IMG/VR virus record: IMGVR_UViG_3300045596_000094
Location: 1-64,000 of that record
DNA from: a virus
Taxonomy: Duplodnaviria; Caudoviricetes
Strand: one strand, 5' to 3'
Length of the DNA stretch: 64,000 nucleotides
Part shown: positions 23,449-46,248 of the stretch, in pieces
Layout of the letters: the number at the start of each line of letters is the position of its first letter
How positions within the stretch are numbered: the stretch's first letter is position 1
Translations under genes and position numbers: made by a program
The notes under the pieces: generated by a model
What the model saw: the letters and a program-made list of their open reading frames with translations, nothing else
What the model was told of the DNA's origin: nothing
The model's database searches: none

Positions 23449-24045
23449 TTAAATTTCATAAACCAATGTTGTCGATATAAGACCTTGGGCCATTGTTAGT
23501 TTATGAAGAAGTGCAGTTGTAGGTTCGGTATCTGAACCTTTAGGTACAGCAATCACTCTGATACATGGATTAAAATCCTTTTTACGAATTACGCTTTTTT
23601 TACCCGTACTCAATTTACTGAGGTCATAACTATTTAATTGAAGCGGTAGGGTTCTTCCAATAATTTCCATCTCTAACTGGGTTTGTTGAAATTCATCCAG
23701 CTCAGATTTAACTGGATTATCTTTAAGTATTGTTTCGAATGACCTATATATTCTACGCATCGAACTCATCAAAGATTTTTGTTTTTCAAACTCATCTGTT
23801 AGAAAAGAAAACCCAGGTGCGAGTTCTATCTGTAGAGCTAACTGATAAAGCTTTTGGGTGTCGATAAATCCAAAAAGAATATGTCGATGAAGATAACTCG
23901 TATAGACTTTATGTTTCATTTGTTTACCAACCATACTGCCGGCTAAAGATAAAGAAAGACCAGCAATAATTTGCTGGCGGTCTTCTTCGCGAATCGTTAA
24001 ATCATAAATCAAAAGGAATCTCCTTATCAGATTCTTGAGTTTCAA
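23449..24045 (-). CDS. hypothetical protein
   Basis: 198 aa ORF. Confidence 0.65.
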   Translation of the reverse strand: MKLKNLIRRFLLIYDLTIREEDRQQIIAGLSLSLAGSMVGKQMKHKVYTSYLHRHILFGFIDTQKLYQLALQIELAPGFSFLTDEFEKQKSLMSSMRRIYRSFETILKDNPVKSELDEFQQTQLEMEIIGRTLPLQLNSYDLSKLSTGKKSVIRKKDFNPCIRVIAVPKGSDTEPTTALLHKLTMAQGLISTTLVYEI

Positions 24046-26242
24046 AAGTGAATGGTACTATCGTGAAGTTTTGAGCAATTTTATCAAGGTAGTTACGAAT
24101 ACCATAACTTGCACTTAACATTCCTGCAAAAACATTCTCATACGTTACCTCTTTGGTTACCTTTTCTTCTAACCTCGAATTGAAGCGGAGCTCTGTTATC
24201 CATTCGAAAAAAGAGTGTTTATGGTGAGGTAATAAAGATCTTCCAACTATTGGAGGTAAATATGGATGCATGGTAAGCTGTCTACCGTAACGAAATGTAT
24301 GGTTAGTTGCTAGCTCACGGTGTTTCATTATGGTAACTTCGAGCTTATCTTTCTCGGTAAGGAACATATCAGACATGTTAGTCACTTTGGAGGTATCCCA
24401 CTCAGTCAAATCTTGATGAAAGCTGCGGTGGGCGTGATACTGTCGCTCAAAATCAAGAGGTTGCCCTAGCCATCCGGGGAGATAATCTCGTATAGATTCG
24501 CCGGATGTAGAAGGTTTCCAATGACTTTCAGTCACCCTTCTAGCCTCCATCTCCTCAAACTGCTTAGCTATGGCGTCAGGGTCCAGAGGGTCATCTAACG
24601 CCTGCCAGCGGATATTTGAGGATACCTCATACCCGCGTAGCTTACAGTATGCCTCAATATAGTTATCCTCAGTAACGTGGATCGTCGGATGCGCGACACT
24701 GTAGGCTAAACGGGATTCGGATAGCGAAGGGGACAGCATTTTCGTTTTGATCGATATTAAACTATCCGGATCAGAACAATCAAAAAGAGCCATATACAAC
24801 TTACATTCTTCTTCAGCGGTAATGGTTCTATTTCTATAACCTTTTACCTGACTAATGCGATATCTATTACCGTCAATGGTAAAATCGCGTTGACCGTAAA
24901 GATCATGAAAAGGGGTGCTTTCGCTTTCCTTCGTCATTTCTAAGGTTAAACCGTATTGATCCACCTCGGTGTCTATGTGAAAGAATATAGAAGACCCTTC
25001 GACACATTTATTTACATAGCTATCCCCACCACAACAGTGATTCATGGACTGACCTTCTAAAACTTGTCTTAAGCTGTTCCCAATATGTTCCCACGTGGAT
25101 GGCAGTTTTGAGAAACTCTTATCTAGTTTAGGGAATGGTTTAGGGTTATGGCTATTGAGGAGAAGATCCGCTTTAACCTTGCCAAAGGTATTGATGTGTT
25201 TGGAATAAAAGTCTTTAGGATGAGTCTCTAGTTTTAATCCTTGCACCTCACTATAACAACCCACAGATTCAACCAATTCATGATGATTTAATCGCAACCT
25301 ACCGCCACCGAAACGTTTGTCCTCTGGCGTGTAAAACGTATATGAATTAAACCACTGAGTGTATTTGGACAACCAAATAACCATGCCGATCTGATTAAGA
25401 ACTGTGCGGTTAAACCCAGCGTTTCCACCAACATAACCTTCCTGAAGACCACGCCATTCATAAAAATTAGACACCATGTTTTTACGCTTTATCAGTTTAA
25501 TCAACTGCCTTAAAAACATTTTCGGATACGTTTTTTCTTTTAGACTAGAGAAGTTATATTTGTCACGCATCAAGCCCGAATTGCCGATGAAGAAATTTTT
25601 TACATCCAACGTCGCTTCCAATTCGAACAGATCGTCTTTAGCATTAAATATGTTGGCAAGATATCGGTAATCCCACAACTCTTCAAAACATCCGATATCT
25701 CCTGAATCACGTATATATGCGATGACTTCCTTAAATAGTTTCTTAATCGTTAAACCCATTGCCATGATGTTGGTATTCAGATTTTGATTCAGTTTCCAAT
25801 ATTTGATATCAAGGGGTTTCCCTCTATGTGTCATGAAGGCATCCAGCACTCTAAAAGATTGCAGATCTTCAACAAATAGTTGACCACTGTTTCCACTACG
25901 CAGTAGCTGTCTCAGTTGCGGAAGAAACTGCGGGTATTCTTCATGGACAGTAATGGTTGCTGCTGCAGCACAACATTGATAGTCATCACCCAAAATCTCA
26001 TACGCCTTCTTTTCCATTTCCCAATCTATGGTTTCATCCATTGATGCTCTAGATATAACGCTGGCTAACTTGTACGGGATATCTCTTTTCTTGCTAGTGA
26101 TTGTGGCTAGATCTACACGCTTATTCATTTGACTGGCAGAAAGAACAAGACCCATCGCTTCGGGTTTGTTATATTTCAATCTGCTGATTAGATATTCTAT
26201 TTCGAACTTATGTCTTTCAAAAAGCAACTGTAAAGGAGTCAT
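24002..26242 (-). CDS. PcfJ-like domain protein carrying one DUF285/PARCEL-type repeat
   Basis: EGQSMNHCCGG.SY...C..G.S.FF...TLE...SQVKGYRN (PcfJ-like); FHQDLTEWDTSKVTNMSDMF. Confidence 0.7.
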   Translation of the reverse strand: MTPLQLLFERHKFEIEYLISRLKYNKPEAMGLVLSASQMNKRVDLATITSKKRDIPYKLASVISRASMDETIDWEMEKKAYEILGDDYQCCAAAATITVHEEYPQFLPQLRQLLRSGNSGQLFVEDLQSFRVLDAFMTHRGKPLDIKYWKLNQNLNTNIMAMGLTIKKLFKEVIAYIRDSGDIGCFEELWDYRYLANIFNAKDDLFELEATLDVKNFFIGNSGLMRDKYNFSSLKEKTYPKMFLRQLIKLIKRKNMVSNFYEWRGLQEGYVGGNAGFNRTVLNQIGMVIWLSKYTQWFNSYTFYTPEDKRFGGGRLRLNHHELVESVGCYSEVQGLKLETHPKDFYSKHINTFGKVKADLLLNSHNPKPFPKLDKSFSKLPSTWEHIGNSLRQVLEGQSMNHCCGGDSYVNKCVEGSSIFFHIDTEVDQYGLTLEMTKESESTPFHDLYGQRDFTIDGNRYRISQVKGYRNRTITAEEECKLYMALFDCSDPDSLISIKTKMLSPSLSESRLAYSVAHPTIHVTEDNYIEAYCKLRGYEVSSNIRWQALDDPLDPDAIAKQFEEMEARRVTESHWKPSTSGESIRDYLPGWLGQPLDFERQYHAHRSFHQDLTEWDTSKVTNMSDMFLTEKDKLEVTIMKHRELATNHTFRYGRQLTMHPYLPPIVGRSLLPHHKHSFFEWITELRFNSRLEEKVTKEVTYENVFAGMLSASYGIRNYLDKIAQNFTIVPFTFETQESDKEIPFDL

Positions 26243-26933: not shown

Positions 26934-27515
26934 CTAATCTCCGATATCTATAATCAGATCAAGGTTAATTGTCCCTAATACTCCCTCGATCTCACATTGG
27001 TTGTTTCTACGATCTAACTCCAGAGTATGAAGATCCGTAGCGAAAAACATATATGCCCCATGAGTGGTCGTTGAGACCTTATCTGGTGCACTACCGAATT
27101 CCGATTTAATACCGATATCATGAATCTGCACATTACTTTTAGTAATGAGATACGGATAACGGTCTGTGAGTAAATCTTTCAGATTAACATTCTGTTTGGC
27201 ATTATCAGAAGTTAAAGTTAGTTCTAATTTTGTAGCATACAGTTCCTGATTGTATTCAGGTGGTTTACCATCCATGTAAGTCGAAGGGAAACCGTTCATT
27301 CGATTAAACATTACATTGTTATAATGCTTAACTAACTCACTTGCAGCGTTTAAGGTTAACTCAACATCATGACATTCCAGTAGATGGTTACGAATCGCAG
27401 CACCAGTCAGCTCTTTACCGTAACCATTATGCATAATCTGGTTTTTTACAAATTCCTTTACAATGGTGTTAGCACCATTCCAAAAGTCTTCTTTTGTTTC
27501 GTACTTTATCATCAT
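26934..27515 (-). CDS. hypothetical protein
   Basis: 193 aa ORF. Confidence 0.75.
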   Translation of the reverse strand: MMIKYETKEDFWNGANTIVKEFVKNQIMHNGYGKELTGAAIRNHLLECHDVELTLNAASELVKHYNNVMFNRMNGFPSTYMDGKPPEYNQELYATKLELTLTSDNAKQNVNLKDLLTDRYPYLITKSNVQIHDIGIKSEFGSAPDKVSTTTHGAYMFFATDLHTLELDRRNNQCEIEGVLGTINLDLIIDIGD

Positions 27516-27532: not shown

Positions 27533-27922
27533 TTATGAACGTTTAAAATCAATTCGGTAAGTGATCTTACCTAGCCTCACAACAGTCGCGCGGCGACCGC
27601 TACCGATGGCTTTTAAGTAGTCCCCATCGGATGAGGTTATGGTATAATCTTGTTGCGTTATGGCATGTGCGGATATACTGTCACGAACAAAAGTTTGGGT
27701 GAAATTGGTTTCCCATCCGCCCACTACACCGTCTATAATTGCGAGATGTTCGCCGTAATTTCTTGTTGGAATTTCGAAAATAACATCAACTATCTTACTA
27801 CCTGATTCGACTTTATCGGACTGTGCGCTCGTGTCTATCTTTGAACTCATTGTACCTAACCAATAAACTAAACCTAGCGTAGCGATAAAAACTAAAATCC
27901 AATAATAGCTTAACTCCAACAT
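27533..27922 (-). CDS. single-TM membrane protein
   Basis: N-terminal TM YYWILVFIATLGLVYWLG; GGAG RBS. Confidence 0.75.
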   Translation of the reverse strand: MLELSYYWILVFIATLGLVYWLGTMSSKIDTSAQSDKVESGSKIVDVIFEIPTRNYGEHLAIIDGVVGGWETNFTQTFVRDSISAHAITQQDYTITSSDGDYLKAIGSGRRATVVRLGKITYRIDFKRS

Positions 27923-27949
27923 CTTTGTCTCCCTATAGGGATGGTCAGC

Positions 27950-28660
27950 TTATTGCTGACACATCCATTCTTTACATGGACTGATCCACATTTTCTTTAT
28001 AGCTAAACCTTGACGTTCCGCAGGGGTCATTTTCAGGTAAGCTTCATGTTCCAGTCGTTTGCGCTCAGTCTCTTCCTCTGCCTTGCGTTTACGTTCAGCT
28101 TCAACCTTCTTCGCTTCCTCCTCTTTACGAATACGTTTTTCCTCAGCTCTTTTAGCTTCAGCAGCTTCCGCTTCTTCCTGAGCCCTAATTTCTTCAGCAG
28201 TTGGTCGAGAATCACGCTCATCCGCATGTGCGGCGGTGGCGGCAACCGCTAAACCAACTAACGCACCGACAGCAGCCGCTGTACCGTCACCAGAAGAACT
28301 AGAACTAGAACTACTGCTACTACGTGATGGACTTGAACTGTAAGACGAAGAACTACTAGAGCTTGATCTAGTAGAAGAGCTACTGCTACGAGTATTACTA
28401 ACGCTGGAACTACTTGAGGGTTTTGGAGAACTCACGTATGTGGAGCTGCTCGTAGGTTTACTTGGCGTATAACTTGGTTTCGAAGTAGACGAGTTATAGC
28501 TAGATGATGCTGACTCATAGCGGGAAGAACGTGTAGACCCACTACTAAACCGATTAGAAGAAGAACTACTGGAGCTACTATAATTAGTGCCAGCCATCAC
28601 GCCAGTTGGCGCGCCAATTGCTAGAATGATCGATAATGTAATCGAGATTAAATGTTTCAT
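27950..28660 (-). CDS. secreted or membrane Ser-rich protein with charged coiled coil
   Basis: Signal peptide, about 100 aa Ser-rich tract, hydrophobic GTAAAVGALVGLAVAATAAHA, E/K/R/A-rich helix. Confidence 0.8.
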   Translation of the reverse strand: MKHLISITLSIILAIGAPTGVMAGTNYSSSSSSSSNRFSSGSTRSSRYESASSSYNSSTSKPSYTPSKPTSSSTYVSSPKPSSSSSVSNTRSSSSSTRSSSSSSSSYSSSPSRSSSSSSSSSSGDGTAAAVGALVGLAVAATAAHADERDSRPTAEEIRAQEEAEAAEAKRAEEKRIRKEEEAKKVEAERKRKAEEETERKRLEHEAYLKMTPAERQGLAIKKMWISPCKEWMCQQ

Positions 28661-29362
28661 TTAGGTCATCCCTTTAACATCAAGATATTTATAAGCATTT
28701 TCAAAATGTCGATTAATCATGTCTTTCTGATAATCACCATTTTGAACGGCTTCCATGGCTTCTTTGTTATCTTCACGAAGATTCTTGAGATTGAACACAC
28801 CACCTGAACTATACTTCCTACGACATTCATCTTCGTCTTCCAGTAAACGATCGAAAATAGCATTGAGTTCAACAAACTTGGAATAAGCTTGATCCCGCCA
28901 TTTGATTTCTTCTTTTGCCAATCGTTTCTTTTCAATTTGCTTATGAACTAAAACAATTGCTCCGAGGATAAGACCACCTGCCAAGACTAAACATAATCCC
29001 CAAATCATAAATGACCAAAAGCGTTTCATAAAGGCTTCATGTGCCAGCCTTTCTTCTTCAGCTTTCTTGGCAGCTATGCGTGCATTCTTTTCCTTCTCTA
29101 ATTGGTTTACTTTATTTTCATAAACCTTATATTCAACTGAAGGTTGTAGACTACCCGCATATTCGATTTTGATTACTTCCAACATATAGCGGTTCGCAAC
29201 AATGGAATCAGGATGGACTTTCAATACTTCCTGCAATTGTGTTTTCGCTTTTGCGTAGTCACCACTATTAATAGTGCTTTCTACATCAGTAACGGATGGA
29301 ACAGCAAGTGCAGCTAAACTGCACAGGCTGAGTATGATAAACAGAGAGAGTTGTTTAATCAT
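28661..29362 (-). CDS. signal peptide, TPR-like domain and TM protein
   Basis: ALA signal cleavage motif; INSGDYAKAKTQLQEVLKVHPDS TPR-like; TM near residues 115-139. Confidence 0.75.
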   Translation of the reverse strand: MIKQLSLFIILSLCSLAALAVPSVTDVESTINSGDYAKAKTQLQEVLKVHPDSIVANRYMLEVIKIEYAGSLQPSVEYKVYENKVNQLEKEKNARIAAKKAEEERLAHEAFMKRFWSFMIWGLCLVLAGGLILGAIVLVHKQIEKKRLAKEEIKWRDQAYSKFVELNAIFDRLLEDEDECRRKYSSGGVFNLKNLREDNKEAMEAVQNGDYQKDMINRHFENAYKYLDVKGMT

Positions 29363-29366
29363 TAAT

Positions 29367-30017
29367 TTATTTCCCTTCTACTTCATTACCTAAGAGTTCG
29401 TCCATAGATAAAACAGCACCCTTCTTCTGATATGCTAAAACATCAGAGTTATCATTTGCTTTACGCTCACGACGACGAGCTTCAGCAACAGCACTATCTG
29501 TTTCAGACTGTTCAATAACATCTGCCAAAGGACCTTTAGAAAGACTTTGATGTACGTCTTCTACTTTGCCATTGGCTTTACCAACCAACTGTTTGCTTGC
29601 TGCTTTACCGAGTTGATTTTTAGCATCGTTAGTGTCCTGTTCTAGACGAGCAATGGAAGTGTCAAGATCTGCTACCTGATTACGAAGATCTAGCTCGTTT
29701 TCGATTAACTGATCTAAAATCGTTTGTTCAGCCATGTATGCGCGATATGCTTTTTGTTTTAGTTCTTCATTTCCTTCTGCAGCATGGTGTTTAACTGCAT
29801 CGGTGAATTTAGAAACATTTTCTTTAGCTATGGTGATTTTAGACTCTAAGAGAATTCCTTGACCAGCCAACTGATTGCGTTGCGAACGAATATCTTCAAT
29901 TTTATTTTTCACTTGATGGATATGTTCGTTACCTGCGTAACGTAGATCTACTGCCTGGTTGCTCTTAACACGGAAGAAGCCAAGGATTGAGAGCAAGAGA
30001 TTTTTTAAGAATGACAT
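29367..30017 (-). CDS. pspA: PspA/IM30 (ESCRT-III superfamily) protein
   Basis: 216 aa; amphipathic N-terminus MSFLKNLL, A.D, and GNEEL...A hairpin turn in register with E. coli PspA; long heptad helices. Confidence 0.75.
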   Translation of the reverse strand: MSFLKNLLLSILGFFRVKSNQAVDLRYAGNEHIHQVKNKIEDIRSQRNQLAGQGILLESKITIAKENVSKFTDAVKHHAAEGNEELKQKAYRAYMAEQTILDQLIENELDLRNQVADLDTSIARLEQDTNDAKNQLGKAASKQLVGKANGKVEDVHQSLSKGPLADVIEQSETDSAVAEARRRERKANDNSDVLAYQKKGAVLSMDELLGNEVEGK

Positions 30018-30029
30018 GTTAAGTTTACC

Positions 30030-30227
30030 TTATTTGGTTTTGTTCGGGGAGGAATCCCAGCTAATGATTTGTTTGGAATCGTGAGCAGCACGCACGCTAA
30101 ACGCGATGTCTGCCTATAATAATTTCGAAGGAACTTCAACAACCTGTTCCTTTATAGTTCCATCAGGTAATGGAATCCGGGCTTTTACCTTAGTGGTAAT
30201 TGTAGGTTCTACTGTTTTATTTGGCAT
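30030..30227 (-). pseudogene. 65-codon gene with one internal TAG (30114-30116)
   Basis: GGAG RBS; MPNKTVEPTITTKVKARIPLPDGTIKEQVVEVPSKLL*ADIAFSVRAAHDSKQIISWDSSPNKTK*; final TAA overlaps the pspA RBS. Confidence 0.55.
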
Positions 30228-30630
30228 GTTTCTCCGAGCCGTTGGCGACTCGCCCCGATTCTAAGATAGGGATACCTGCCTCTGTAGGGATGTACACGAT
30301 TTGCTGAATGTTCTCTTTCTGAACAGCTTCTGCAAATGCACCCATGAACTCCTGAGTGCGGTACTCCGGATATTTTTGGGCAGCTTCACCCATAATCTTA
30401 ATAGCAGCAGCACGTTCGACAGCCGCTTCGCGTTCTGCTTGAGCCTGTGTTACTAAAATTTGACGTTCTTGATTGGCGCGAGCGAGAGAAGCTTTACCTA
30501 CTTGCTGTTGCTGCCAAACCATTAGAAACGGTTTGAGTAAAATAAAGTAAAAGCACATAAGGACAATAGTCAATATAATCCAAACTTTAGCTTTAGATAA
30601 CATCTTCATGAAATCTTCAAAATCGTACAT
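30217..30630 (-). CDS. TM protein with SPFH (stomatin/prohibitin)-type C-terminal coiled coil
   Basis: TM, VWQQ...G.A.LA.A, AQAEREAA..RA.AI..GEA...YP.Y, IVYIPTEAGIPILE. Confidence 0.7.
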   Translation of the reverse strand: MYDFEDFMKMLSKAKVWIILTIVLMCFYFILLKPFLMVWQQQQVGKASLARANQERQILVTQAQAEREAAVERAAAIKIMGEAAQKYPEYRTQEFMGAFAEAVQKENIQQIVYIPTEAGIPILESGRVANGSEKHAK

Positions 30631-31596: not shown

Positions 31597-32469
31597 TTAA
31601 TTACAGAGTCTATCTAAAAGGTTCAATAAACGATAACCAAAGATATATCCAAGGTCATCCATTAGGGCATCAACTGATTCTCTATCTAAAGGTTGGATAC
31701 GGTAATCTTCAGGATATAAGCCAATTTCAACATCTGTCTTAATTTTAGTTAAAACACGATCTAGTTTCAGAGATTCCAAAGATGAACCGATTAAGTGAGG
31801 GGTTCTCCCAACCATGTTAGGTAGGTTATCCACTATACCATCGATAGATCCAAATTGACTGAGAAGATTAGAAGCGGTTTTAGCACCTACACCCTGCACA
31901 CCTTGAACCCCATCAGCTACATCACCGACCAACGCCAAGTAATCTACGACCTGTTCGGGATAGACACCCATTTTACTTTTCACATCCTCACGACCGAATC
32001 GCATTCCAGTGAAAGGGTTCTCAATTACAATCCCTTGATCTACTAACTGGAACATATCCTTATCGCCCGTAGAGACAATAACAAAATATCCTTCTGATGC
32101 TGCCTGTAAAGCAATTGTGCCAATCAGATCATCTCCCTCATAGCCATCACGAACAACCACCTGCATGCCGAGTGCTGAGAAAGCTGCTAGCATGTAAGGT
32201 ATTTGTGCGGTGAGTTCTTCTGGCGGAGGGCTTCGATGTGCTTTATAGCGGCTAGATAATTGATGTCGGAACGTAGGTGTACCTGAGTCAAATACGATAG
32301 CTACTCGGGTTGGTTCGATCTGTTCTAGGACTCTACGAAATGTCGCCATACTGGTTTTTACAGCATTAACAGGAATACCACCAAAGGAGTATTCCAGATC
32401 GCTTCCTCGAAACGTACGATGGAGATAATAAGAACCATCGACTACAAGAAATGGTTGTTTCAAAGACAT
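31597..32469 (-). CDS. 5'-3' exonuclease / flap endonuclease (Pol I N-terminal domain-like)
   Basis: VDGSYY..R, VFD, TFRH, YKA.R, EGDD.IGT, STGDKD..QL, LVGD..D, GVG.KTA (H3TH). Confidence 0.92.
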   Translation of the reverse strand: MSLKQPFLVVDGSYYLHRTFRGSDLEYSFGGIPVNAVKTSMATFRRVLEQIEPTRVAIVFDSGTPTFRHQLSSRYKAHRSPPPEELTAQIPYMLAAFSALGMQVVVRDGYEGDDLIGTIALQAASEGYFVIVSTGDKDMFQLVDQGIVIENPFTGMRFGREDVKSKMGVYPEQVVDYLALVGDVADGVQGVQGVGAKTASNLLSQFGSIDGIVDNLPNMVGRTPHLIGSSLESLKLDRVLTKIKTDVEIGLYPEDYRIQPLDRESVDALMDDLGYIFGYRLLNLLDRLCN

Positions 32470-32556
32470 AATGAATCCTGTTAAAAATATTCTACTATAT
32501 AAATAAAGAAACACTTTATTTAAAACTCAATGATATGAATTGAAATATAAAGAAGC

Positions 32557-42971: not shown

Positions 42972-45299
42972 ATGTCTACAATTTATACCAGCACACCTCG
43001 TGCCATGTTGCTGGGTGTGAAGGACGAATCTATTCGAGAAGTACCGCTCGAAGATATCGTTCTTCCAGCCCACTTACCATGGGTGATGACTTTTGCTGAA
43101 CAAGGTGATGGGTTTCCACACATGCTGATGAGTTCTGGCGCTGTACGTATGTATGGTTCAGATACTTTTGATATTTCTGGGAAGTATGCAACTCACCAAA
43201 CTGCTCTCATCAATGTGTTTATGGCGAATGCCAATCCAATGATGCTTCAGCGAATTATTCCTGAAGGTGCAAAAACCTCTATCCTACGATTATCTGTAGA
43301 AATTATTCCAACAATGATTCCAGATTACGAGCGTAGTGAAACTGATGGTTCAATCGTTTACGAATTCAACGAATATGATGAACGTGTTCCTAAAGTAAAA
43401 GAAATGATCGCAGGGAACCGTGTAGTTTATCACACAACTGTTGCTCCGTGGAAAACTGAAGATCCTGTTAAAACAGCAGCTGCCATCGCAGTGGGTGGTG
43501 GTACGATTGTACGTAATTATCGCAGTGGCGATACCCTCTCTTCTACTGGCGAAAAGCTCGGGGAATTAGAACCTACAATTTCTGCTAAAGTTCCTACTTC
43601 AACGCTTTATCCAGTAATGGATGTGTTGGTCTCTTCTGCAGGTTCTTTCGGTGACCGCAAAGGTATCCGTTTGATGTTACCTACAACTAAAGGTTCAAAT
43701 CCTTTAGACTACAACACCTTCCGTGAAAGTCGCGCTTATTTACCGCGTCTAGGTTTAGTCACTAAAGATCCTAAGGATGGTAACTATGTTAACATCCCTA
43801 CGACAGGTGGCGATACCTTTATTGATGTATCCTTCAAAGAAGGTGTACGTACTGAACGTGCTAAGGTTCCTTTGTACATCGCAGATCGCTTGATCGAAGA
43901 TTATGAAATTGCAACTGAATCACAACCGCATATCCCTGGACCGTACAGTAAAGTTCATGTCTACCATAATGAATTGGCTGAGGCTTTGGGCGTATTGATC
44001 AACGGTACTGACGGTAGTTCTACAGCTATCGCTGGTATTAAAGGTGAATCTGGGTTCAACGATATTGCAGCTGAATGGCAACGTCTCCCAATCAATGATG
44101 CTTCGGCTCAGCGTTTGAACTTCCTTGGTGGTTACGACGAAACTGGTGCGCCTTACTTTGCTTTTGAAACATCTAAGTCTGCTCTTTTTGGCGGTGTTGC
44201 TTTAGGTAATGAAACCTACATCTTCCCTGAAGGTGGTGAAGATGGGTTACCGTTAATGGCAACTGGAGAAATCAACGAATTGGCTAAGTACGAAATGTAC
44301 GACAATGCTGTTCGTAAAGAAGCTGAAAACTTCGGTAATGGTGAAGTTAAATTCCTGAATACTGCGAAATACCCTATTTCCGCACTTTGGGATACTGGCT
44401 TCTCTATGGATACCAAGAAGGCTATGCTTACACCAATCGGTCTTCGTAAAGACTTCGGGGTTGTACTTGCAACGCATTCAGTAGGTGACTTCTTCAATGA
44501 AACCACTGAAACCACCCCAGGCAAATACGTGACTAAGCGCGTTTATCAGTGGGTAGATGATAACGATATCGCTTCTGAAACATCTATCGCAGGTGTCTTG
44601 CGCACACATGCAAGTTTGTATCCTGAGTCTGAAGTTTATGGCACACCAGTTTGTCGTGCGATCATTGTTGGTCAATCTGGACGATTGATTAATAGTAGTT
44701 ATACCCGACGTTTACCTTTAACCATTGAATATGGTAATAAGGTTTCTCGTTTCATGGGTGCTGCTGATGGTTTCTGGAATCCAGCTCGTGCCTACGATCA
44801 GAAAGGTCAGAACATCATTGAGATCATGCGTGATGTCAATTTAACATGGCGTGAAGAGAACGTTGCGAATCAGCAATGGGCTAATGGTTTAGTGTACGCT
44901 GAAGATTACGACATGCGTCGTATGTTCTTCCCGGCTATCCGTACTGTTTACAATAATGAAACATCAGTATTGAACAGTTCTATCACCATGTGGGCAATTA
45001 TCACTATTGAGCGTGAAGCGCACAATAGCTGGCGTGATCTCGTAGGGAATGCGAAATTCAGTCCTGCTAAGTTCTTACAAGAATCTGACCGAATCTTGAC
45101 TGAACGTTTAGCTAAGCGTTTTGACGATCGTTTCATTATTGAAGTAGAAACCTACTATACTGAATCTGATACTGTGCGCGGCTATAGCTGGAGCTGTAAC
45201 ATCCATATCTACGCTCCGAACATGAAGACCGTTGGTCAGTACACGGTTGTTGCGCATCGCATCGAAGATTACCAAGCGGATCTTGCGACAGCGGCTTAA
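42972..45299 (+). CDS. tail sheath protein (phiKZ gp29-like)
   Basis: 775 aa divergent from terminase block; G..D.S, P.HLP, YG.DTFD, (W/Y)DTGF, YPES..YGTP..R, MKTV. Confidence 0.9.
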   Translation: MSTIYTSTPRAMLLGVKDESIREVPLEDIVLPAHLPWVMTFAEQGDGFPHMLMSSGAVRMYGSDTFDISGKYATHQTALINVFMANANPMMLQRIIPEGAKTSILRLSVEIIPTMIPDYERSETDGSIVYEFNEYDERVPKVKEMIAGNRVVYHTTVAPWKTEDPVKTAAAIAVGGGTIVRNYRSGDTLSSTGEKLGELEPTISAKVPTSTLYPVMDVLVSSAGSFGDRKGIRLMLPTTKGSNPLDYNTFRESRAYLPRLGLVTKDPKDGNYVNIPTTGGDTFIDVSFKEGVRTERAKVPLYIADRLIEDYEIATESQPHIPGPYSKVHVYHNELAEALGVLINGTDGSSTAIAGIKGESGFNDIAAEWQRLPINDASAQRLNFLGGYDETGAPYFAFETSKSALFGGVALGNETYIFPEGGEDGLPLMATGEINELAKYEMYDNAVRKEAENFGNGEVKFLNTAKYPISALWDTGFSMDTKKAMLTPIGLRKDFGVVLATHSVGDFFNETTETTPGKYVTKRVYQWVDDNDIASETSIAGVLRTHASLYPESEVYGTPVCRAIIVGQSGRLINSSYTRRLPLTIEYGNKVSRFMGAADGFWNPARAYDQKGQNIIEIMRDVNLTWREENVANQQWANGLVYAEDYDMRRMFFPAIRTVYNNETSVLNSSITMWAIITIEREAHNSWRDLVGNAKFSPAKFLQESDRILTERLAKRFDDRFIIEVETYYTESDTVRGYSWSCNIHIYAPNMKTVGQYTVVAHRIEDYQADLATAA

Positions 45300-45354
45300 T
45301 CAAATATGGGGTAGGGTTTCTACCCCATCTTCTAATTAAATTTGGAGAATAAAA

Positions 45355-46248
45355 ATGGCTGCTCAACGCCGATATGCCGACACCTTGATTGTAGATGATA
45401 AATCTGCACGCGGGTACGGTCGTGGTCGTCAAGCCCCTATGCTCGATTTGAAGTATGGTGGTAATAACGGTCATATGCCAGATTATCCTGGCTACATTTC
45501 AAATACGCCTTACGTACGTCGTAACTTAATCATTCGTTTGATTCAAGCACCACGTGGTTTCGACTATTTGCCTGAACCAGAAAAATGGTACGAAGCACTG
45601 AAAGCGTTAATCGAATTACATCCTCTTTCTGTAACTGGCTTTAATAACCAGTTAGAAGTCACCATGAGCGAAACACCTTTCGGTGGTGCGGGTGAAATGC
45701 AGGAAGCAGTATCTAACGTTACGCGTTCTCGTGTAATGCCAGTATTCAACTACGTTGAGAAATATGGTCGTCCGATCACTACCTTCTTCGAACGTTGGGT
45801 TACTGAATTGATGATGGATCCTAACTCTAAATTCCCTAACGTTGTTACACGTACAAATGCGCGTAACCAAATCGTTGACTTGCTGCCTGACTTTACGTCT
45901 GCAACAATTCTTGCATTTGAACCAGACCCTACATTCACTAAGATTGATAAGGCTTGGTTAGTTGCGGATTTAAAACCGAAGAACTCTCTTGCTCCTGCAG
46001 AAGGTGAGCGTAACATCCATCAAGGTGGTGACATCATTGAGTTCCCAATCGAAATGACTGGTGTTGCTCAAACTGGTGCTGGTGTTAACTTGTTTGCTCA
46101 GAAGATCTTAGAATCAATGGTATTAACTGGTGCGAACCCGTTGAACCGTGAAGCCTTTACTACTGAAATTGACGGTAACATTGTTGACCTTCAATCTGGT
46201 TATAAAGAGCAATTGGATCTTGCTGCTCGCACATCTGTACGCGAATAA
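45355..46248 (+). CDS. tail tube protein (phiKZ gp30-like)
   Basis: Follows sheath; PYVRRN.I...P.GF, KAL.E.H...I/VTG, GGAGE, EKYG.PI, EPDP.....AWL. Confidence 0.88.
   Translation: MAAQRRYADTLIVDDKSARGYGRGRQAPMLDLKYGGNNGHMPDYPGYISNTPYVRRNLIIRLIQAPRGFDYLPEPEKWYEALKALIELHPLSVTGFNNQLEVTMSETPFGGAGEMQEAVSNVTRSRVMPVFNYVEKYGRPITTFFERWVTELMMDPNSKFPNVVTRTNARNQIVDLLPDFTSATILAFEPDPTFTKIDKAWLVADLKPKNSLAPAEGERNIHQGGDIIEFPIEMTGVAQTGAGVNLFAQKILESMVLTGANPLNREAFTTEIDGNIVDLQSGYKEQLDLAARTSVRE

Follow-up and report, generated by a model that had tools for sequence, protein, structure and literature searches.

The subject of this analysis is a group of minus-strand genes at positions 27533-30630 of the IMG/VR phage record IMGVR_UViG_3300045596_000094, located within its first 64,000 nucleotides (nt), the stretch that was analysed as a whole and is referred to here as the window. 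Three of these genes, gene 1 (29367-30017), gene 2 (28661-29362) and gene 3 (27950-28660), are, as read from their sequences, a translationally coupled phage cassette that unrelated phages of Gram-negative bacteria inherit and pass to one another as a single unit. They encode a divergent member of the PspA/IM30 family of bacterial ESCRT-III proteins (216 amino acids), a bitopic envelope protein (233 amino acids) and an exported Ser/Thr-rich protein (236 amino acids), respectively. It is held with high confidence that gene 1 is a genuine, divergent PspA/IM30 protein and that the trio is conserved. As the best explanation of the whole, it is on balance probable that the coupled trio operates as a partner-anchored PspA polymer that protects the inner membrane.

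The window is the beginning of a phage genome of 269,038 bp that carries direct terminal repeats. By its large terminase, which shares 40-44% identity with the terminases of phiKZ-type jumbo phages, the phage is phiKZ-like. The trio belongs to a long run of minus-strand genes that begins with a 5′-3′ exonuclease gene (31597-32514). The original prediction for this region had described six tightly packed, co-directional reading frames as a self-contained membrane-remodelling system; all of them were found on the minus strand at their assigned positions, and the tight packing was confirmed for genes 1 to 3. The stop codon of gene 1 and the start codon of gene 2 are separated by a gap of 4 nt, with the ribosome-binding site GAAGGGAAA lying within gene 1, and the ATG of gene 3 stands immediately 3′ of the TAA stop codon of gene 2. 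In the Acinetobacter phage vB_AbaM_3098 (PV081573) the stop and start codons overlap between the genes of the trio. A megablast comparison of the region with phages gave no match.

The PspA-like protein of gene 1

When gene 1 was compared alone with the Pfam family PF04012, it matched with an E value of 0.005, its residues 30-186 being in register with profile positions 29-185. A phmmer search of the single sequence against the PDB returned no match; only the family profile matched. The family was gathered with a three-sequence profile in a full scan of 1.84 billion protein cluster representatives, among which it is small (37 representatives), and the family alignment was built from 25 full-length members. 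PF04012 was matched by 15 of the 25, with a best E value of 9.6e-24, and any other family by at most four. In the comparison of the family profile with the PDB, Vipp1/PspA chains were matched at an E value of 2e-14 in a gap-poor alignment over the full length, in which profile positions 1-209 fall on chain residues 3-212. Chains of Vipp1, PspA or IM30 accounted for 11 of the top 13 matches, and the next non-PspA matches were about nine orders of magnitude weaker. The conserved C-terminal S-x-D-E-L-L of the family ('S.DdiL' in the profile) is placed by this alignment on the 'DDEL' motif of Vipp1 α5.

The AlphaFold2 model of gene 1, with a mean predicted local distance difference test score (pLDDT) of 80, consists of the helices α0 (3-22), α1 (25-80), α2/3 (84-161), α4 (163-187) and a short α5 (190-197), so that the ESCRT-III fold, a long α1-α2/3 hairpin followed by α4 and α5, is present in the predicted structure. 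A Foldseek search with this model placed Vipp1/PspA structures on all of ranks 1-13, with template modelling (TM) scores of 0.55-0.62. The hydrophobic moment of α0 ranges from 0.29 to 0.48 across the family, compared with 0.42 for α0 of E. coli PspA. The family also has motifs of its own, namely DLRYAG after α0, GPLAGAIE and ANDNSDVLAY. The assignment of 29367-30017 as PspA/IM30-like, which the original prediction had made from the letters of the sequence, is thus borne out by the profile match, the Pfam matches of the family members and the Foldseek ranking, and in sequence and predicted fold gene 1 has all the hallmarks of a membrane-binding ESCRT-III polymer. That it might be merely a generic coiled coil, resembling PspA in composition only, could be argued from the marginal PF04012 match of the single sequence and from its weak contacts with several unrelated coiled-coil families. 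This is nevertheless very unlikely, because the profile match to Vipp1/PspA runs gap-poor over the full length and far outscores any other, PF04012 is by far the commonest family match, the helix boundaries of the model and its Foldseek matches fit the PspA/Vipp1 plan, and α0 is amphipathic.

About one third of the family carries a C-terminal extension of 30-90 residues that is rich in Ser, His and Asp and ends in ...SSSS-D (P0004, P0005, P0008, P0012, P0013, P0018, P0020 and P0023). The composition of this extension recalls the Ser-rich region of gene 3.

The partner proteins and the conservation of the trio

From hydropathy and the structural model, gene 2 is composed of a cleavable-type signal peptide (1-20), a periplasmic TPR-like domain (~21-90), a transmembrane helix (114-139) and a cytoplasmic three-helix bundle (140-229). 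In the AlphaFold2 model (pLDDT 87) the signal peptide forms a helix, and one continuous helix (76-173) includes the transmembrane segment. The TPR-like domain is the best-conserved part of the protein in an alignment of 22 homologues. It superposes on many TPR domains with Z scores of 9-11.6 and a root mean square deviation of ~2 Å over 65-71 residues, a result that lies under the caution level for helical repeats. Weak Pfam matches were obtained to TPR_6, TPR_2, TPR_14 and YfiO (E 0.002-0.05), each below its cut-off, and Foldseek with the gene 2 model returned no match at E <= 0.001, yielding only local TPR alignments. For the cytoplasmic domain a specific fold such as MIT was considered and set aside, as VIA-align returned just generic three-helix bundles. 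According to the model, gene 2 is a single-pass inner-membrane protein whose TPR-like domain is periplasmic and whose helical bundle is cytoplasmic, which agrees with the signal peptide, TPR-like domain, coil and transmembrane helix that had been described for 28661-29362.

Gene 3 begins with a signal peptide (1-23), followed by a basic, disordered Ser/Thr-rich region, an Ala/Gly segment (126-146), an acidic flank, a Glu/Lys/Arg-rich helix and a tail. Sequences, hydropathy and charge counts are in accord with the earlier description of 27950-28660 as a signal peptide, Ser-rich region, hydrophobic segment and charged coil. The Ser/Thr-rich region spans ~100 residues, of which 50-68% are Ser or Thr, and is net basic; in an alignment of nine orthologues it holds the conserved motif SRYES...SYNSSTSKPSYTPSKPS. 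The tail is strongly conserved in the same alignment, with the pattern MTP..R..IAIKKMWISPCKEWMCQ and a Cys-x4-Cys pair, and the Ala/Gly segment is marginally hydrophobic (Kyte-Doolittle 1.5-2.0). One orthologue of the nine, L014:5729-6451, ends in ...ISPVKVW and has neither of the two conserved cysteines; this tail may be a natural variant, or a truncation from sequencing or assembly. Genes 2 and 3 gave no significant match to Pfam, PHROGs or NCBIfam.

A tblastn search with gene 1 against 50,697 phage records gave a single match, in the cultured Acinetobacter phage vB_AbaM_3098 (55.6 kb), where homologues of genes 2 and 3 come after that of gene 1, the trio lying at 44159-46174 of PV081573. 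The trio was found in the same order in IMGVR_UViG_3300008122_000001 (184 kb), the one other IMG/VR contig matched, and in contigs from Logan/ENA that range in length from 3 to 249 kb; besides vB_AbaM_3098 it occurs in at least five further gene contexts. In an all-against-all comparison that took in every open reading frame of 11 loci, the only clusters common to more than three loci were gene 1 (11), gene 2 (10) and gene 3 (9), with contig ends accounting for the absences. Gene 2 adjoins gene 1 in all ten loci that extend that far, and gene 3 follows gene 2 in all nine. Co-occurrence in relatives, on which the original prediction had staked its six-gene cluster, was therefore found for the three core genes, and the six do not make up one conserved cluster.

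The arrangement is kept in distant loci where gene 1 is only ~21% identical and the PspA protein passes Pfam outright. At L020, PspA is followed by a homologue of gene 2 (E 1e-32) and then by a Ser-rich protein with a signal peptide and a C-x5-C tail, and the same pattern is seen at L013 and L019. Since the flanking genes vary between lineages, the cassette moves as a unit, and its preservation as a complete trio in the course of transfer between phages that are not related speaks for the three proteins acting as a single machine. Members of the gene 1 family turned up only on phage-like contigs among the phage records, IMG/VR and the cluster representatives. A bacterial or plasmid origin of gene 2 was also considered; nothing in GTDB (185,579 genomes of bacteria and archaea, one per species) or among the 72,556 plasmids of PLSDB matched gene 2.

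Two observations concern the surroundings of the trio in particular carriers. In one phage lineage a GroES/Cpn10 gene (PF00166) lies directly after the trio (L003:8065-8346, L005:2777-3046 and L006:2661-2930), and the most distant trio examined, at L020, is immediately preceded by a gene for a TilS-like PP-loop ATPase (PF01171; L020:356-967).

Working model and competing explanations

In the working model, gene 2 would serve as membrane anchor and envelope sensor, and gene 3 would partner it in the periplasm, perhaps as the ligand that the TPR-like domain binds. The cytoplasmic bundle of gene 2 would recruit or regulate the PspA-like protein, which would polymerise on the cytoplasmic side of the inner membrane and keep the membrane sealed and energised during phage replication. 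Taken by itself, this mechanism of anchoring and membrane protection is proposed tentatively, at a little below an even chance. A complex prediction with three chains and their alignments (gene 1 with the C-terminal portions of the gene 2 and gene 3 proteins) scored 0.12, 0.37 and 0.00, the mark being 0.32, and is given no weight either way.

Several points weigh against the partner-anchored polymer. Gene 1 scores 16.9 bits with PF04012, below the gathering score of 33.9. The Ala/Gly segment of gene 3 is preceded by basic and followed by acidic residues in all nine orthologues, and in the distant gene 3 homologue of L020 the hydrophobic stretch has only ~10 residues. As the flanking charges oppose the positive-inside rule for a stop-transfer helix and the stretch in L020 is so short, the C-terminal half of gene 3 may be periplasmic; on these sequence features the whole mature protein may lie in the periplasm, with a disulfide-closed tail. 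Finally, membrane maintenance, superinfection exclusion, counter-defence and lysis timing would all fit the sequence alike.

A more far-reaching version of the model, which is considered unlikely, is that the trio forms a trans-envelope, ligand-coupled ESCRT-III switch. Gene 3 would bind gene 2 at its periplasmic TPR-like domain, envelope changes would be signalled through the transmembrane helix, and the cytoplasmic bundle would nucleate or release the PspA-like polymer. Damage by abortive-infection effectors of the host or the arrival of a second phage could be the triggers. If true, the phage would possess a sensor-effector of its own for repairing the membrane or for exclusion, one that has no cellular counterpart.

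Superinfection exclusion or envelope remodelling has a small probability. Here genes 2 and 3 would be the main actors and would block later DNA injection, and PspA would buffer the resulting stress. It is consistent with this that genes 2 and 3 are best conserved in periplasmic parts, namely the TPR-like domain and the Ser/Thr-rich motif, that the cassette is surrounded by small accessory genes in its carrier phages, and that it is mobile between phages in the manner of accessory fitness genes. However, in Pfam, PHROGs and NCBIfam the proteins do not resemble any known exclusion protein, and the strict linkage to PspA is explained no better than by the partner-anchored polymer.

A role in counter-defence is given the same small weight. 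The cassette would repair or prevent the membrane damage caused by pore-forming or transmembrane effectors of abortive-infection systems (CBASS, retrons, Thoeris-like), so that the cell survives until progeny are made. PspA/Vipp1 proteins seal leaky membranes, a patchy and mobile distribution is typical of anti-defence genes, and the sensor-like periplasmic domain in the model of gene 2 could report envelope damage. Yet no conserved defence-related neighbour was seen in the 11-locus comparison, in which PADLOC was not searched, and the reading is purely inferential.

Control of lysis timing is distinctly improbable. The module would delay the holin-triggered collapse of the membrane in an antiholin-like manner, with the Ala/Gly segment of gene 3 acting as a signal-anchor-release (SAR) segment. 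The marginal hydrophobicity of this segment and the acidic flank that follows it would suit such a function, and host PspA responds to loss of the proton-motive force. But no holin, endolysin or spanin was seen among the identifiable genes beside the trio in the fetched loci, and the segment of gene 3 is internal, whereas SAR segments of known SAR proteins are N-terminal.

Flanking genes and relation to known systems

Two further genes of the region, at 30217-30630 (minus strand, 137 amino acids) and 27533-27922 (minus strand, 129 amino acids), lie outside the conserved core. Each of their products has one N-terminal hydrophobic helix, as had been described, in the former case a transmembrane helix followed by a helical tail and in the latter a transmembrane helix. 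The protein of 30217-30630 matches phrog_11227 (E 1.3e-28) and belongs to a widespread family of ~125 amino acids with 144 homologues, some of them on Sphingobacterium chromosomes. An SPFH-type tail had been assigned to it; this was not confirmed, and the SPFH reading was dropped because no Band_7 signal was seen. Band_7 (PF01145) was absent from this protein and from 17 homologues at E <= 0.1 and was found nowhere in the 269-kb genome, and with 137 amino acids the protein is too short for the 176-position Band_7 domain after its transmembrane helix. The top match of the family profile in the PDB, the post-SPFH coiled coil of prohibitin/stomatin, is a faint, non-significant likeness (E 0.08-0.3). 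The family occurs in genomes of Sphingobacterium and Neisseriaceae as well as in phage-like contigs, and some sources annotate it as 'membrane protease subunit / HflC-like'; this label looks over-extended, since the family is devoid of the SPFH domain.

Beside the trio, a relative of 30217-30630 was found only in the closest relative, L016, two genes from the PspA-like gene. The gene at 27533-27922 starts past a 27-nt gap after gene 3; its product matches nothing in Pfam, PHROGs or NCBIfam and shows a weak pairwise match (E 0.004) to its positional counterpart in L016, and the gene is absent beside the trio in the other loci. From this distribution, the 137- and 129-amino-acid genes are lineage-specific neighbours and not parts of the module, in which the original prediction had included them.

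The 'small interrupted ORF' counted in the same cluster is a TTG-started frame of 45 codons (30005-30142) in the region of the 199-nt non-coding spacer upstream of gene 1 (30018-30216). At the position of the spacer L016 holds two small genes (111 and 86 amino acids). The frame was considered as a decayed gene, which was rejected as comparison with the two L016 genes showed no likeness in protein or DNA. The spacer has a predicted fold of -42.3 kcal/mol, calculated without a shuffle control, and may hold a promoter or a regulatory RNA structure for the module.

Taken together as a six-gene, self-contained Psp/SPFH system with which a nucleus-forming phage would shape the early phage infection (EPI) vesicle, the region could be read in this way from its phiKZ-like terminase, from the SPFH-annotated family gene 200 nt upstream of gene 1 and from a published survey in which SPFH genes were located near 36 of 189 pspA genes of huge phages (Yuan & Chen, bioRxiv 10.64898/2026.10.24.761521), but it is highly improbable, given that the other genes are missing beside the trio in the 55.6-kb Acinetobacter phage and in the further contexts, that the 137-amino-acid protein is free of a Band_7 domain and that the interrupted frame is non-coding. 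Because a 55.6-kb myovirus and several unrelated contigs also have the trio, its function probably does not depend on jumbo-phage or nucleus biology, and on this ground the proposed link to the EPI vesicle was not upheld, no search for chimallin or nucleus genes having been made in the genome.

Outside this region, the first 67 residues of a 193-amino-acid protein (26934-27515) match phrog_4452 ('anti-restriction nuclease') at an E value of 7e-4, and L016 has a shorter counterpart. A 746-amino-acid protein (24002-26242) has no PHROG match at E <= 1e-5; the corresponding gene of L016 encodes 868 amino acids and gives a faint DUF285 signal.

With the PspA/IM30 (Vipp1)/LiaH family (PF04012), gene 1 shares the collinear profile match over its full length, the α0-α5 plan with an amphipathic α0 and the 'D-E-L' motif of α5; it differs by its score below the Pfam gathering threshold, its family-specific motifs, the long Ser/His/Asp-rich tails of some members and the restriction of the family to phage-like contigs. 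None of the 25 members of the gene 1 family matched phrog_1203, the T4 e.6-type family, at E <= 0.01, and only weak matches to phrog_26980 were obtained. In E. coli, the membrane partners PspB and PspC are encoded directly after pspA. The phage trio resembles this arrangement in that an effector PspA is followed directly by the genes of two membrane or exported partners, but genes 2 and 3 are much larger and carry cleavable-type signal peptides. No neighbour gave a family match to PspB or PspC in Pfam or NCBIfam, and no PspF-type regulator was found in the conserved unit. The suggestion that the phage uses dedicated membrane partners other than PspB/PspC is thus supported by genes 2 and 3, which co-occur with gene 1.

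In B. subtilis, YdjG and YdjH interact and anchor PspA at the membrane, and deletion of either abolishes the membrane foci of PspA (PMC8581546). The pspA-ydjGHI locus is similar to the phage trio in that pspA precedes two genes for membrane proteins (PMC8581546), a likeness of gene order and of membrane or exported partners. In contrast, the phage module contains no true SPFH protein, and its partners carry signal peptides and periplasmic domains. Under the working model, the arrangement would be a phage-borne functional analogue of PspA-PspBC or of PspA-YdjGH with presumably unrelated partners.

Phage-encoded PspA is already known. Yuan & Chen (bioRxiv 10.64898/2026.10.24.761521, 24 Oct 2026) reported 189 pspA genes from 184 huge phages as well as 667 genomes of IMG/VR, where their screen used a PF04012 cut-off of E <= 1e-5, listed Ca-ATPase, SPFH, ABC transporters, CPBP protease, DUF350 and TPM among the neighbours, and proposed membrane maintenance in infection as the role of phage PspA. 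The present case agrees with theirs in the presence of PspA genes on large phage genomes, often beside membrane proteins. It differs in that gene 1, at an E value of 0.005, fails their cut-off, in that their listed neighbours include neither a TPR-transmembrane protein with a signal peptide nor a Ser-rich, Cys-tailed protein, and in that the trio is found also in a 55.6-kb phage. The expectation of an undescribed system was borne out in part: phage PspA with SPFH and membrane neighbours has been published (bioRxiv 10.64898/2026.10.24.761521), and the divergent PspA subfamily with its two dedicated partner families appears to be undescribed.

Screens that rely on Pfam thresholds miss part of the phage PspA repertoire. 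PspA and Vipp1 are the bacterial branch of ESCRT-III, and how these proteins reach membranes is still debated; in the cassette, a PspA-type effector is accompanied by two dedicated partners that belong to no known family. The carrier Acinetobacter phage vB_AbaM_3098 is available in culture (PMC12656882), which makes the role of a phage PspA in infection, a question that the survey of huge phages left open, directly testable.

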